A stretch of 64,000 nucleotides of DNA from Escherichia phage vB_EcoP_PE006, in the sequence record OQ938541.1; one strand, given 5' to 3'. The position numbers and the translations under genes were made by a program. This document shows positions 13,548-64,000 of this stretch, in pieces; position 1 is the first letter of the stretch; each line of letters begins with the position of its first letter. The notes beneath the pieces were generated by a model. The model was not told the origin of the DNA and did not search any database. It saw only the letters and a list, made by a program, of their open reading frames with translations.

Positions 13548-14609
13548 ATGGCTAATCCAACTTTATTTGTATCGTATGACCAGAATGGTAAAAAACTTTC
13601 TTTTGCTAACTGGATTTCTGTTCTGTCCCCTCAGGATACTCCGTTCGTATCTATGACCGGTAAAGAGTCTATCAACCAGACTATCTTTAGCTGGCAGACC
13701 GATGCACTGGCAAGCGTTGATGGTAATAACGCACACGTCGAAGGCTCTCGTGCTGAAGACGGTGAAATGAAACCGACTGTTATCAAGTCTAACGTTACTC
13801 AGATTCTGCGTAAGGTTGTTCGTGTTTCTGACACTGCTAACACCACCGCTAACTACGGTCGTGGTCGTGAACTGATGTATCAGCTGGAGAAGAAAGGTAA
13901 AGAGATCAAGCGTGACCTCGAGAAAATCCTTCTGTCCGGTCAGGCTCGTACCGACGTTCTGGCTGACCAGTATCTGACTAACTCCGCAGCTGATCCGACT
14001 CAGATTGGTAAGAACGACACCCATGCAGCTCGTAAGACTGGTGCATTCCAGTTCCTGTGTGCTCACGGTGGTCTGGCTGGCGGTGTTGTTGACAAGACCA
14101 AGAATGGTCCTGCTGACCCGGATACCGGTGCAATCACTGTTAAAGTTGCACAGAACGCATCTAACCCGGCTACTAACATCGGCTTTGATGAAGCAGATAT
14201 CTTTGACATGACTCTGCAACTGTACACCGCTGGTTCTGAAGCAGATATCATCATGATTAACCCGGCTCATGCTAAGATCTTCGCTGGCCTGCAAGAAAAT
14301 ACTCAGGGTTCACGTAAGCGTATCTTTGAGAACACCAAGCAGTTCATCTACGAAGTTAACAGCATCACTGACCCGCTGGGCCAGAGCTACAAAATCATCG
14401 TTAACCGTTGGATGCCTACCGATGCAGTTTACTTCTTCCGTAGCGCTGACTGGACTCAGATGGTTCTGCGTGCTCCGAAACGTACTGAACTGGCTAAAGA
14501 CGGTTCTTACGAGAAGTGGATGATTGAAATGGAAGTTGGTCTGCGTCACCGCAACCCGTATGCTTCCGGTGTTCTGTTCACTGCTGCGGGAAAGGCGGTG
14601 GCGGCGTAA
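13548..14609 (+). CDS. major capsid protein
   Basis: 353 aa, strong RBS (AGGAG), follows the scaffold gene; composition and size typical of an HK97-fold capsid protein. Confidence 0.8.
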   Translation: MANPTLFVSYDQNGKKLSFANWISVLSPQDTPFVSMTGKESINQTIFSWQTDALASVDGNNAHVEGSRAEDGEMKPTVIKSNVTQILRKVVRVSDTANTTANYGRGRELMYQLEKKGKEIKRDLEKILLSGQARTDVLADQYLTNSAADPTQIGKNDTHAARKTGAFQFLCAHGGLAGGVVDKTKNGPADPDTGAITVKVAQNASNPATNIGFDEADIFDMTLQLYTAGSEADIIMINPAHAKIFAGLQENTQGSRKRIFENTKQFIYEVNSITDPLGQSYKIIVNRWMPTDAVYFFRSADWTQMVLRAPKRTELAKDGSYEKWMIEMEVGLRHRNPYASGVLFTAAGKAVAA

Positions 14610-15136
14610 CAGTAGATACTATAACTGTTAGTCCTTCGTCGGTTGCAAGCCTTCCGACGGGGGCTACTCAGCAGTTTACAGCTACAGCACAAATGAGTGA
14701 TAGCTCCACATCAACAACTGGATTTGTTTGGTCCGTTGAGGGTGGTGGGGCTATTTCTGTTTCTGGACTGTACACTGCACCGAGTGCGTCGCAAGAAACC
14801 CCGATTACAGTGAAAGCTACTAAAGGTGGTAAATCTGGTACATCTACGATCTCAGCTATTGCTGACCCTGAACCTACCCTTGTTAGCCGAGGTCCGATTT
14901 CAGGGAAGGTGGGTGGATCAACAACCGCATTCTCTACTATGTTTACAGCAACAAACTCTACCGGAAGTGACTATACTTTTGAGGTAACTCCTCCGGAAGC
15001 GGGCACTGTTAGTGCAGCTGGTCTTTTGACTCTTGCTGATACTGCTACGGGTGCAGTCTCTGTTACAGCTACACACGAGACTAAACCTCTTGTAACAGCC
15101 ACTTGTGAATTCACAGGTGTTACCCCCAAAGCCTAA
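13548..15136 (+). CDS. major capsid protein, candidate -1 frameshift isoform with two C-terminal Ig-like (Big_2-type) domains (~529 aa)
   Basis: The -1 frame is open from 14528 to 15136 and encodes Ig-like sequence (ITVSPSSVASLPTGATQQFTATAQ...); a G_GGA_AAG heptamer lies 4 codons before the capsid stop. Confidence 0.55.
14588..14594 (+). other. candidate -1 programmed ribosomal frameshift slippery heptamer G_GGA_AAG
   Basis: Heptamer of the X_XXY_YYZ class in the capsid zero frame; shifting here yields ...AAGK-GGGGVTVDTITV... Confidence 0.55.
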
Positions 15137-60793: not shown

Positions 60794-62824
60794 TTAACCT
60801 CTATTCAATGAACATTTAGGAGAATTACAATAAACTTGATTCATAGAACCAAGCGTACAACTTTCAGCATCGCGCCACGGAATCTGCTTAAAACACTCTG
60901 AGCAGTAGCCGAGGGTTGACCACATGGCTTTGGTGAAGTCAGTGCTTCGGTTTCCGTCGAAGCTGACAACAGTTTTGCGGAGAGCTGTTCGTGATTCAGG
61001 AAACACACCTGCTTTCTCAGCAGGTTCCTCCTTTTTTGGCTTAGTTGAGATTGCAAAAACACTGTTGCTACGTTTCTCAACATAAGCATCAACAACATCC
61101 TCCAGAGTGATGCCTGTCTGTTTCGCTGAGGAAGGTAATACAGTCATACGACCAATCATATCTTCAGTTACACGTAAAGCAAATTCAGGACGACGGGCGT
61201 TTGTTGTATCTGTTGCTTTAATCCAGATATAACCATCTTTGATCGTAGCATTAGACACTTTCTTCTTTACATCTACAGCGCAGACTTTACAGATATCTTC
61301 ACCACGAAGACGGCTGAGTTCTTCATCAAACTCGTTTTCTGTTTTAACTTCACCACAGATTTCACAAACACCGATAGGAGTTTCCTCCTCTTCTTCATCC
61401 TTTGGTTTAGTCAAACCTTCCAGACATTCAGGGTGCCAGTAGCATTGATATGCGAAGACTGCTTTAGGTGCATCCTTCCAATCAATGTGTTTGTCACAAC
61501 CACCACAATCACCATGAGAGTGCGCTTCCCAGAATTTACGAGTGATAGTAACGCCATTCTTGTTGACGAAACTATCATTCATATCAAAAGGGATATCATC
61601 ATCAAAGTCAGCAGTAGTAGACTCAGGCTCCTTTTTCTCCAGAGATGGGTCAACAAAACGACCTGCTGTGATTACTAAACGAACCATAGCATTAACTTCG
61701 GAGATGCAGGATACTGTCCCACGGTAAACAATTTTAGGGTCTTTCAGGGCATCCTGATAAGCCTTAATGTCTACGTTATGAACATCACCCTCGATATACT
61801 CTTGAGACTTCTCATCGTAGATATAACCGATCATCTTACCACGAGAAGGAACAGCACCAGCTGTTGCATAAGGAACAAACTCATGTGGTGTGATTTCTAC
61901 AGTCATGTCGCGGCGAATGTCAATGTTTCGATCGCTTGCGATTTTGTTTTGACTTACCACTGCGTTTCTTCGACGAACGTCTGCCGCTGTCACTCCCGGC
62001 TTCGTGTCGTAAGGATTGCTTGTACTGCTTTTTGAGGAACTTTGATAGTTGCTTTGGCTGTAGTTGTTCGAGTAGTAATTGCCCCAACGATTGATTACCG
62101 TAAAAACCGGAAGCTCGTGGGCGACCTCTTCAACCAGAGTCATGCTGTTGTTTGACATATCAAAGATATACTCTGTACCAACTTTACATTCAAAGTGCTC
62201 ATCAATTCGGTTCTTGTGAGACTTAGAACGCTTCAGAATCCACATCAACATATCTTCTTCAGAAGCACCAAACCAATCTCTGTTACAACGTGCGAGATGG
62301 AAAGGACGCTCTTCGTTACGGATGATATGAAGGCGGTTATCAGAAGCATCATGCCAGATTAAGGTGAAAGCACCATCCAGCTTTTGAATAGTCTCTGCTG
62401 CACCAATAGTATTAATAGAGTGGCAGATGTTCTCACTATCTACCTCGAAGTTTTTACTGTCAGGTAACAGATCTTGGTCCATCAAGGTTCCGTTATGAAC
62501 CAGAGTGATGTTACCATGTTGGAAAGGATGGGCGTTCTTGGCGTTAACTGCACCTTTCGTTGCATGACGGCTGTGACCAACAATCCATGAAGGTGCTACA
62601 GTGTAAGCTGTTTCACCAGTGGTGTGCTTCTTGTACTCATCTTGAAGGATGAATGCGAAAGAAGGAAGTGCCTCTTTATAAGTGAAGACTTCCTTAGTGC
62701 TCTTACGCTGACCAAAGATACCAGAGGAATGTTGCCCTCGGAATACCCCAGCATAAAAGAGTTGGTTAAATACGTCTAAATCGGTGCTTGACAGATTACC
62801 GCCAGCTAATACGATGCCACAAAT
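60794..62824 (-). CDS. class-II glutamine amidotransferase (Ntn-hydrolase) domain protein with Cys-rich C-terminal zinc-ribbon-like segments; proposed non-canonical ATT start
   Basis: The frame is open 113 codons upstream of the track's TTG start and encodes (I)CGIVLAGG...GHSRHATKG...NAHPF...LVHNGTL, a GAT-II signature with N-terminal Cys. An in-frame TAG lies two codons before the Cys; the only codon before Cys is ATT, with AGGTGG 8 nt upstream. Confidence 0.55.
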   Translation of the reverse strand: MCGIVLAGGNLSSTDLDVFNQLFYAGVFRGQHSSGIFGQRKSTKEVFTYKEALPSFAFILQDEYKKHTTGETAYTVAPSWIVGHSRHATKGAVNAKNAHPFQHGNITLVHNGTLMDQDLLPDSKNFEVDSENICHSINTIGAAETIQKLDGAFTLIWHDASDNRLHIIRNEERPFHLARCNRDWFGASEEDMLMWILKRSKSHKNRIDEHFECKVGTEYIFDMSNNSMTLVEEVAHELPVFTVINRWGNYYSNNYSQSNYQSSSKSSTSNPYDTKPGVTAADVRRRNAVVSQNKIASDRNIDIRRDMTVEITPHEFVPYATAGAVPSRGKMIGYIYDEKSQEYIEGDVHNVDIKAYQDALKDPKIVYRGTVSCISEVNAMVRLVITAGRFVDPSLEKKEPESTTADFDDDIPFDMNDSFVNKNGVTITRKFWEAHSHGDCGGCDKHIDWKDAPKAVFAYQCYWHPECLEGLTKPKDEEEEETPIGVCEICGEVKTENEFDEELSRLRGEDICKVCAVDVKKKVSNATIKDGYIWIKATDTTNARRPEFALRVTEDMIGRMTVLPSSAKQTGITLEDVVDAYVEKRSNSVFAISTKPKKEEPAEKAGVFPESRTALRKTVVSFDGNRSTDFTKAMWSTLGYCSECFKQIPWRDAESCTLGSMNQVYCNSPKCSLNRG

Positions 62825-62903
62825 TTTCTAATCCACCTGAAGGGTAAACCCTTTCATCTAATTAACCTTTAAATTGTGCCCCTTTATCAGAGGCACCCAT
62901 TGA

Positions 62904-63878
62904 TTACAGCGCTTGCTCTAACTGATTTTCCAGATGATCTGGAATGTACCCTGTGATATTGCTATCGCTGTGACCTGACTCACGCAGTAAGTCAAAGATA
63001 GCACGGATACGTTGTTCTGGAGCGTGTCTTACTTGAGACAGGTCAGTTGTACGAAGCATAACCAGAATCTCTTGGTATAAGTTGTTAGCGTTCCCTCGGA
63101 TATACCCAAGGAATCCGTAGAAGTCTGACATATAACGTAAGTCAACAAGAACATCTCCGTTGGAGTTGGTTCGACGTAAACGAATACGACCAGACTGCTC
63201 TACTCCATGAGAACGACAATACAAAACATCACGGGCCATACAATACCCTGAATGCAAATCCGATTCGTCCAGATTGTAATCCAGAGGAAGGTAAGTAAGC
63301 ATTGGGGCAAATCGTACAGTATTTAAATGCTCAATAAACTGATCATTGCTCATCTCTGCGTTATCTAATGCAAGCTTCTTCAACATCAAGAAGCGGTTAA
63401 CCAGATTGAGAAGTTGACCACGTTTCCACTTAGGCTCACTGATACGGAACTCAATCGAACCATATTGGGCAAGTGGCAGAAGGTTCAGAGATGTATACTT
63501 ATCCCATGAACGAACCAGACGGTTGAAGAACTCTTCATCGTCGTAGTTAAATGCGTCAGAGGCATTCATTACCTGTGCTTGTACCACTGCGAAAGCAGGG
63601 CAGAAGTTGCTACGGTAACGATGGTAGCCTGAACACTTGAACAACATCTTTTCATAGAAGGTCCAAGCGAGAATGGTTTTCTTGAGGATATTACTATCAG
63701 CATCCCTCATATCCATATGAACGTGAGTAGAGCAACGCCAAGTCCCCTCGGCGTGCGATTCAGCTACTGCTTCACTCAGGTTGTTGATAGCGTCTAACAA
63801 CTCCTGTCCGTTGTAAGGTCGTGAACATACCATTTCACAACCATTACGCAGGGAACCATCCTCTGTACAATCCCACAT
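62904..63878 (-). CDS. hypothetical protein (324 aa), part of the ATP-grasp/amidotransferase cluster; possible amide ligase by context only
   Basis: Conserved-looking ORF (EGTWRCSTHVHMD...); family not identified from sequence. Confidence 0.4.
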   Translation of the reverse strand: MWDCTEDGSLRNGCEMVCSRPYNGQELLDAINNLSEAVAESHAEGTWRCSTHVHMDMRDADSNILKKTILAWTFYEKMLFKCSGYHRYRSNFCPAFAVVQAQVMNASDAFNYDDEEFFNRLVRSWDKYTSLNLLPLAQYGSIEFRISEPKWKRGQLLNLVNRFLMLKKLALDNAEMSNDQFIEHLNTVRFAPMLTYLPLDYNLDESDLHSGYCMARDVLYCRSHGVEQSGRIRLRRTNSNGDVLVDLRYMSDFYGFLGYIRGNANNLYQEILVMLRTTDLSQVRHAPEQRIRAIFDLLRESGHSDSNITGYIPDHLENQLEQAL

Positions 63879-64000
63879 ATCTACTTCGATATGATCGGAA
63901 CCTTCGAGTTCAAGTTCAATACCGACACCGCACTGAAGTGCAATTGAACTATGCGCCTCAGTTAAACGACCTTCTCGATATCCAAAAGTTTGCGCTACAG

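Follow-up and report, generated by a model that had tools for sequence, protein, structure and literature searches.

In N-terminal nucleophile (Ntn) amidotransferases such as GlmS and PurF, removal of the methionine exposes Cys1 as the nucleophile, and the PurF of Bacillus subtilis carries a propeptide that is cleaved off. Confirmed AUU starts in Escherichia coli are limited to infC and pcnB, and in E. coli reporters an AUU start gives about 1-2% of AUG (bioRxiv 063800); elsewhere AUU was found 6-8-fold below AUG/GUG, and reporters of the thrS-infC junction, UAA GGU AUU, drew about equally on reinitiation and on de novo initiation (PMC3592434). The ebpA gene of Enterococcus faecalis has a rare ATT start codon that attenuates expression, and this start was verified experimentally (PMC4447247). 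Here we looked at the start of a glutamine amidotransferase (GAT) gene of Escherichia phage vB_EcoP_PE006 (OQ938541.1), in a stretch of 64,000 nucleotides (nt) that is called the window below. From sequence comparison, this gene very probably starts at an AUU codon (62824-62822) placed directly before the codon of its predicted catalytic cysteine. The window is a Kuravirus genome sequence (96-98% identity to phiEco32, SU10, NJ01, 172-1 and others by megablast); these podophages infect E. coli, have prolate heads and carry the amidotransferase gene in the early region (SU10 paper, PMC4281155). The features of the start region, including the open reading frames (ORFs) and the Shine-Dalgarno (SD) sequence, are as follows.

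60794..62824, minus strand: glutamine amidotransferase coding sequence (CDS) read from ATT, 676 codons and TAA, identified by translation and by Pfam GATase_6/7/4
62822..62824, minus strand: ATT, proposed AUU initiation codon, at the position of the ATG in homologues and invariant in about 110 sequences
62819..62821, minus strand: TGT, predicted catalytic Cys (Cys1 of the mature enzyme), part of an invariant C2-G3 and aligned with Cys1 of PurF and residue 2 of GFAT1
62833..62838, minus strand: AGGTGG, SD sequence, 8 nt 5' of ATT
62830-62828, minus strand: in-frame TAG, two codons 5' of ATT, with AAA (62827-62825) between
62828..62857, minus strand: mini-ORF ATG AAA GGG TTT ACC CTT CAG GTG GAT TAG (MKGFTLQVD*), in frame with the GAT gene
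62483..62485, minus strand: TTG, first canonical start, used as the start in many annotations, with a weak SD (-2.9 kcal/mol)

The reverse complement of positions 62819-62830 reads TAG AAA ATT TGT, in the wider context AGGTGG-ATTAGAAA-ATT-TGT. Along the minus strand from 62960 to 62780 the order is the TAA of an amidoligase gene, a GC-rich hairpin, the leader and the amidotransferase start. After the hairpin, the leader reads AATTTAAAGGTTAATTAG ATG AAA GGG TTT ACC CTT CAG GTG GAT TAG AAA ATT TGT GGC ATC GTA..., so that it holds a mini-ORF of 9 codons whose ATG is at 62857 and whose TAG lies 3 nt 5' of the ATT.

This arrangement shares with E. coli infC an AUU start that is preceded by a stop codon and a 3-nt gap (UAA GGU AUU in infC, UAG AAA AUU here), an SD placed upstream within the preceding frame, and an AUU conserved by selection, with no drift. 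However, the preceding frame is the full-size thrS in E. coli and a putative mini-ORF of 9 codons in the phage, and whereas the infC AUU underlies the autoregulation of initiation factor 3 (IF3), the phage product is a metabolic enzyme, any link of which to IF3 would be indirect. With pcnB, which encodes poly(A) polymerase I, the locus would share an AUU limiting an enzyme whose excess is presumably harmful; the pcnB orthologues have canonical starts (bioRxiv 063800), as do the ATG lineages found here beside the ATT ones, but pcnB is a chromosomal host gene for which no upstream mini-ORF is described. The ATT start of ebpA likewise came from an in silico prediction, the database entry having its start at an ATG further downstream (120 bp there, 113 codons here; PMC4447247); in contrast to the phage start, which is predicted from sequence, it was verified experimentally, in another organism and for another protein class. 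B. subtilis PurF resembles the phage protein in that both are Ntn amidotransferases and both have residues encoded ahead of the catalytic Cys, but in the phage an in-frame stop lies between the upstream ATG and the Cys, and the homologues have no propeptide.

The amidotransferase frame is open from the ATT over 676 codons down to the TAA at 60794. Its first ATG, GTG or TTG is the TTG at 62485, located 113 codons past the ATT, which gives the 563-residue ORF listed by the ORF finder; the calculated masses are 63.8 kDa for this truncated product and 76.1 kDa for the product of 676 residues. The N-terminal stretch devoid of canonical starts spans 114 codons, compared with at most 24 in the other genuine long frames of the window, a comparison that sets apart a capsid frameshift extension (see below) and a gene running past the end of the window. 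When the ATT-initiated protein was used in a tblastn search, 327 phage records were found, and even those with 30% identity aligned from the first residue of the query. At the position of the ATT, the sequence ATG-TGT-GG (MCGIV...) is present in Proteus phage 3H10_20, Cronobacter phage GAP52, Salmonella phage 7-11, Aeromonas phage LAh_8 and Vibrio phage SJSY21, as well as in three IMG/VR contigs (L015, L017, L018) and one metagenomic contig (L106), and these ATG-TGT homologues carry an ordinary SD 7-9 nt 5' of the ATG. In a large protein collection, the start MCG was found in 73 of 81 homologues. The AUU therefore stands where orthologues have a canonical start, and no such start is available in frame for the catalytic domain since the TAG lies two codons upstream of the ATT.

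We then compared the 113 disputed codons with those of phage SU7, which belongs to a different genus (Suseptimavirus) and shows 68% nucleotide identity over the locus. Identical codons number 42, while 46 differ synonymously and 25 non-synonymously, and the differences at the three codon positions amount to 21, 13 and 67; L014 gave the same pattern. These substitutions indicate purifying selection on the 113 codons that precede the first canonical start.

Truncated calls within this family also occur for another reason. In contig L104 (JGI Ga0451568_006906, 1308-1330), an ordinary ATG-TGT lying within a few bases of the amidoligase stop was missed, and a truncated GAT of 446 residues (P0068) was called instead; automated annotation thus shortens members of the family at the N-terminus even where the start is not an ATT. 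P0068 and a second protein, P0074, had at first seemed to be further truncated calls; the former proved to be this missed ATG-TGT and the latter to lie at a contig edge.

The product read from ATT consists of a class-II/Ntn GAT domain (residues 1-255), to which the Pfam matches GATase_6/7/4 correspond, and of a Cys-rich part (residues 256-676) without a Pfam domain. In the family profile PHROG 4736, position 2 aligns with residue 2, and the coverage ends at residue 518. Since a search of the PDB with the single sequence gave no match, a profile of 12 sequences was used, and its positions 1-2 (M-C) fell on residues 1-2 of human GFAT1, position 2 falling on Cys1 of mature E. coli PurF; the alignment also matched HTRWATHG...NSHP of GFAT1. 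The AlphaFold2 model of residues 1-255 is of high confidence (predicted local distance difference test 92.5, predicted template modelling (TM) score 0.90), and its strand beta-1 (residues 3-8) comes directly after the Cys. The best Foldseek matches were the glutaminase domain of GlmS, GFAT1, PurF, asparagine synthetase (AsnS) and EgtC (structures 1xff, 2j6h, 6r4j, 1ao0, 1ecf, 6gq3 and 4zfk), with E values of 1e-10 to 5e-14 and TM scores of 0.6-0.7. Both the model and these matches thus give the four-layer alpha-beta-beta-alpha fold of Ntn hydrolases.

As in other class-II enzymes, the predicted catalytic Cys directly follows the proposed initiation codon, and C2-G3 is invariant in alignments of 12 and of 43 sequences. 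The residues of glutamine binding and of the oxyanion hole are also in place: R29, G30, H84, R86, T89, H99, P100 and D129 are invariant, and N97 and A98 are invariant or nearly so. Within the 113 disputed codons alone, the invariant residues are C2, G3, R29, G30, H84, R86, T89, H99, P100, F101, N111 and G112. According to the model, the product started at the TTG 62485 would be without the nucleophile and would miss about half of the single compact GAT domain. The N-terminal Cys nucleophile, the Ntn fold and the Arg-Gly, His/Arg/Thr, Asn-x-His-Pro and Asp motifs are thus shared with class-II GATs of the PurF/GlmS/AsnB type; the difference lies in the C-terminal part of about 420 residues, which is not a known synthase domain. 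For this part, no Pfam match and no known synthase domain were obtained with Pfam and with PHROG 4736, which gives a family name only. Several CxxC pairs occur in it (residues about 256-676; 60794-62059, minus strand), for instance CGGCDKH, CEICGE...CKVC and CSEC...C.

Taken together, the homologues, the alignment of Cys1, the fold model and the SD support what a first-pass annotation of this DNA had put forward as the simplest reading, namely initiation at AUU directly before the catalytic Cys. That annotation had rightly noted that the GAT-II-homologous frame extends well upstream of the first ATG/TTG, as is evident from the tblastn alignments starting at residue 1 and from the 46 synonymous against 25 non-synonymous codon changes. 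It had also placed the ATT before the Cys and two codons past an in-frame TAG (62830-62828, 62824-62822 and 62821-62819 for the three codons), with AGGTGG at SD distance, and all these elements were accurate; the mini-ORF and the invariance of the leader had been overlooked.

The conservation of the start region was then studied. The sequence TAG-AAA-ATT-TGT is present in 95 records of phiEco32-like phages, and the surrounding 60 nt are 100% identical in 67 of them and one base off in the other 28; in SU7 the one-base difference is a synonymous change (GGC to GGT) after the Cys. TAG-AAA-ATT was also found in 5 IMG/VR contigs and in 7 metagenomic contigs, one of which (L097) has TGC for TGT. 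The ATT is therefore invariant in about 110 sequences while adjacent codons vary synonymously (TGT/TGC, GGC/GGT), and the amidotransferase frame is open from the ATT in each of them. Degenerate-pattern scans of IMG/VR and of metagenomes, in which the TAG and ATT positions were left free, gave no copy of the leader with anything but TAG...ATT. A block of 58 nt (62817..62874, minus strand), comprising leader, mini-ORF, SD, ATT and TGT GG, is identical between Kuravirus and Suseptimavirus. It is the longest identical run in the 2.86-kb alignment of the window with SU7, the next longest being 29 nt.

The ATT carriers are Kuravirus, Suseptimavirus, a KBNP1711-like phage, the Aeromonas phage BUCT695 (Grimontviridae) and the metagenomic contig L103. 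BUCT695 (L094, NC_070977; 2507-2585) reads ATG AAA GGG TTA ACC CTT CAG GCG GAT TAG AAA ATT TGT GGC and matches the 58-nt block at 92%; it keeps the mini-ORF, the TAG, the 3-nt gap and the ATT, and its RefSeq CDS is truncated. L103 reads ...AAAGGATATAG GTG ACT AAA ATT TGT GGC, with a perfect SD (AGGTGA) 5 nt 5' of the ATT and no mini-ORF, and the gene caller placed the start at the GTG contained in this SD. When the N-terminal domains were arranged in a neighbour-joining tree, built without bootstrap, the ATT came out in three places, each by an ATG lineage: Kuravirus, SU7 and L014 by L106, L103 by L015, and BUCT695 by GAP52. Common to the three ATT lineages are AGG(T/C)G(G/A), which is AGGCGG in BUCT695, an A-rich spacer of 5-8 nt, and ATT-TGT. 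Judging from these sequences, the ATT would have been gained or kept repeatedly, unless the leader module moved by recombination.

Two of the ATG-type loci show likenesses to the ATT-type leader. In L106 (100-145), the canonical start AATTTAAAGG-N8-ATG-TGT resembles the AATTTAAAGG-N8-ATG that opens the mini-ORF in the window (62828-62875), and GAP52 (L007, 370-410) shares TAGATGAAAGG(A)TTT...TTAG with the ATT-type leader, without ACCCTTCAGGTGGA. This suggests that the ATT-type leader may have arisen when a short segment was inserted between the Cys codon and an ancestral start region, or that the reverse deletion took place, the sequences being too short to resolve homology.

How the AUU might be used can be pictured as follows. 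A 30S subunit would dock on AGGUG, 8 nt upstream, and the initiator tRNA-fMet would decode the AUU. The pairing AGGUG:CACCU with 16S rRNA was calculated at -7.2 kcal/mol, compared with a median of -6.2 in the window and with -2.9 and -3.5 kcal/mol for the internal TTG 62485 and ATG 62482; an SD at functional spacing and an AUU conserved in evolution, as in other AUU genes, are thus both present. Deformylase and methionine aminopeptidase would then take off the Met, since Cys is a small penultimate residue, and would expose Cys1 as the N-terminal nucleophile of the class-II glutaminase domain, the predicted mature N-terminus being CGIVLAGGNLSSTDLDVFNQLFYAGVFR with a free alpha-amine. As the AUU is weak as a start, its conservation would reflect selection for low translation of an early gene or for IF3-sensitive expression, as for infC and pcnB. 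A share of the initiation would probably come from ribosomes ending the mini-ORF at the UAG, 3 nt 5' of the AUU.

Several points speak against initiation at the AUU or weaken the case for it. AUU is weak in reporters, yet the amidotransferase was readily detected in the proteomics of SU10, in which 9 of its peptides show that it is made during infection (PMC4281155). The protein was entered there at 63.8 kDa; since this mass is that of the truncated model, the SU10 proteomics left the N-terminus untouched, and N-terminal peptides could not be found. The 58-nt leader is wholly invariant, so that the conservation of the ATT is inseparable from that of its surroundings. Finally, L103 has an in-frame GTG three codons 5' of the ATT that may serve as an alternative start.

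The mini-ORF and its surroundings contain two further elements.

62866..62870, minus strand: AAAGG, weak SD-like motif, 8 nt 5' of the mini-ORF ATG (-3.8 kcal/mol)
62840..62853, minus strand: small hairpin AAGGG-TTTA-CCCTT, inside the mini-ORF and directly 5' of the SD (-4.6 kcal/mol)

The mini-ORF is conserved in all Gordonclarkvirinae copies, is present in BUCT695 with two non-synonymous changes and is absent in L103. The stem of the small hairpin is kept in BUCT695, where the loop is TTAA. Another candidate, a hairpin sequestering the SD (GGUUUACC/GGUGGAUU), was rejected, since both BUCT695 substitutions break its pairing without compensation. By analogy with thrS-infC, of which the stop-near-start geometry is present here (UAG, 3-nt gap, AUU) with a weak SD for the mini-ORF, a contribution of reinitiation from the mini-ORF is plausible. 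A stronger form would be that the AUU is used essentially only by termination-reinitiation: ribosomes loaded at the mini-ORF AUG 62857 would melt the hairpin, stop at the UAG and restart at the AUU, held there by AGGUG, and the gene would be nearly silent without translation of the mini-ORF. This would fit several observations: Gordonclarkvirinae show no variation in the mini-ORF ATG, the TAG and the 3-nt gap, all of which BUCT695 has as well; the geometry is that of the thrS-infC junction; no block of the locus is more conserved than the leader; and the true start of L106 resembles the mini-ORF opening. However, the weak SD of the mini-ORF (-3.8 kcal/mol) has no equivalent in BUCT695 (+0.8), in which both mini-ORF substitutions are non-synonymous; L103 has the ATT and the SD without any mini-ORF, and reporters of the stop-gap-AUU geometry initiate about half de novo (PMC3592434). 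We thus regard an obligate dependence on the mini-ORF as possible but doubtful.

Somewhat more tentative is the idea that the 58-nt leader, with its weak SD, 9-codon mini-ORF, hairpin, strong SD, stop, 3-nt gap and AUU in this order, forms a self-contained translational control module. Such a module would mimic thrS-infC and tie the synthesis of the amidotransferase to IF3 and to ribosome availability, and it would have been swapped between Gordonclarkvirinae and the Grimontviridae phage BUCT695 or have re-evolved repeatedly from ATG-starting ancestors.

Far less probable than either is a start at the mini-ORF ATG followed by readthrough of the TAG, natural or by a suppressor. The product, MKGFTLQVD-X-KI-Cys..., would carry a propeptide of 12 residues that would be removed autocatalytically, as in B. 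subtilis PurF, which is a structural match and has a cleaved propeptide. The mini-ORF is indeed in frame with the GAT gene, the residues encoded just before the Cys are K-I in each of the three ATT lineages, and a start at the GTG of L103 could yield M-T-K-I-C. But no continuous frame runs from a canonical start through to the Cys: the TAG interrupts it in the window, in all Gordonclarkvirinae and in BUCT695, and only L103 has an in-frame GTG. Recoding of the TAG, or its decoding by a phage suppressor tRNA, was rejected, as the window encodes neither a tRNA nor a suppressor and TAG is an ordinary stop that ends 4 of its 61 ORFs; natural hosts lack amber suppressors, and the yield would be very low. 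Moreover, the homologues have no propeptide, with Met directly before the Cys in 73 of 81, and an SD at an ideal distance from the ATT would be superfluous.

We consider it still more improbable that the start is dead, through a change of ATG to ATT, with a decaying glutaminase domain and a functional product of 563 residues started at the TTG 62485 or the ATG 62482. Although many records and the mass spectrometry (MS) table of SU10 use the 63.8-kDa model, the 113 codons are under strong purifying selection across lineages at 68% nucleotide identity, the catalytic residues are invariant, the truncated product would lose half of a single compact fold, the SDs of the TTG and ATG are weak, and the frame is open from the ATT in all of the about 110 sequences. 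A sequencing or assembly error creating the TAG or the ATT, which the first-pass annotation had named as a possible refutation, is virtually excluded, as 95 phage genomes sequenced independently carry the identical sequence, and so do 5 IMG/VR contigs and 7 metagenomic contigs. The AUU is thus retained as the very probable start of the amidotransferase gene.

The ATT start has already been annotated and is thus not a discovery. In the RefSeq record of phiEco32, phi32_83 (YP_001671828.1; 54493..56523) is a CDS of 2031 nt that starts on ATT; as it is the only ATT start among 15 neighbouring CDSs, this choice was deliberate. SU10_085 (in GenBank and in the S1 table), phiL_083 of phage LAMP and Bas93_0070 of the 2025 BASEL phage Bas93 are likewise annotated from ATT, with equal length; these are the same gene with the same leader and ATT, without any biological difference. 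A literature search, with the original phiEco32 paper outside its scope, found no text discussing the ATT start and no experimental test of it. In contrast to these entries, Paul, NJ01, SR02, SU7, BUCT695 and many automated annotations have a CDS truncated at an internal ATG or TTG, and the CDS reaches the ATT in about 7 of the 56 annotated among the 60 records listed. The first-pass annotation had expected that ORF finders restricted to ATG/GTG/TTG would truncate the catalytic domain, and this is what the 563-residue ORF and most GenBank records show. The contribution of the present work is the proof by comparison, the occurrence of the ATT in three lineages, the invariance of the leader and a geometry like that of infC.

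Two other features lie upstream of the leader.

62904..64000, minus strand: Amidoligase_2 gene (Pfam PF12224), TAA stop at 62906-62904, start beyond the window end
62876..62898, minus strand: GC-rich hairpin located after the amidoligase stop and before the leader, found by folding, terminator-like without a T-run

The amidoligase homologues are 1104 nt long, which places the true start about 7 nt past position 64000; the listed ORF of 324 residues opens at an internal ATG. The amidotransferase gene is clustered in the phage with genes of the Amidoligase_2, COOH-NH2 ligase, ATP-grasp and GGCT-like types. The hairpin at 62876-62898 shows compensatory differences, with GTGCCTC/GGGGCAC in the window, GCGCTC/GGGCGC in SU7 and a shorter loop in L014, and like hairpins followed by a TTTAAATGTAA-like motif are found 5' of the GAT gene in GAP52, 7-11, Proteus 3H10_20, LAh_8 and L015. 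It could be an element of RNA processing or stability, or a weak terminator followed by a promoter-like element.

No sigma-70 promoter or intrinsic-terminator consensus was found in the leader on the gene's strand, and a comparison by eye with the phiEco32 gp36 promoter consensus tAATGTAtA (PMC8948821) gave no match. The SU10 supplementary table maps no promoter or terminator at the amidoligase/amidotransferase junction. An Rfam scan of the leader returned no family, the sole match being at chance level (E 0.55, 14 bits for a threshold of 70), and within the window the leader is not a repeated element. On the plus strand, a sigma-70-like match TTGACA-16-TACGAT (62788-62815, 10/12) lies antisense to GAT codons 4-12. 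It is probably fortuitous: 1 such match was found and 0.7 are expected by chance, and the TTGACA is not conserved in SU7.

Elsewhere in the window, a plus-strand frame (14528-15136) has 55 codons without a start and encodes an Ig-like repeat (VTVDTITVSPSS...) directly after the major capsid frame (...GVLFTAAGKAV). This is a programmed frameshift and not another non-canonical start, which fits the gp9/gp10 fusion by ribosomal slippage reported for SU10 (PMC4281155).

As a consequence of the start chosen, most deposited genomes of Kuravirus, Suseptimavirus and BUCT695 annotate an N-terminally truncated amidotransferase that is predicted to be catalytically dead, and this error is inherited by protein databases and proteomic searches, as seen for the MS table of SU10. 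The locus brings no new category of mechanism and is an ordinary to moderately interesting member of the rare class of AUU starts. A phage AUU kept in more than 100 genomes, with an infC-like layout and an unusually conserved leader, would nevertheless be a convenient natural system for the study of weak-codon initiation and reinitiation, and it could help to explain how the amount of an enzyme in the putative amidoligase/GAT/ATP-grasp pathway is controlled by a phage.

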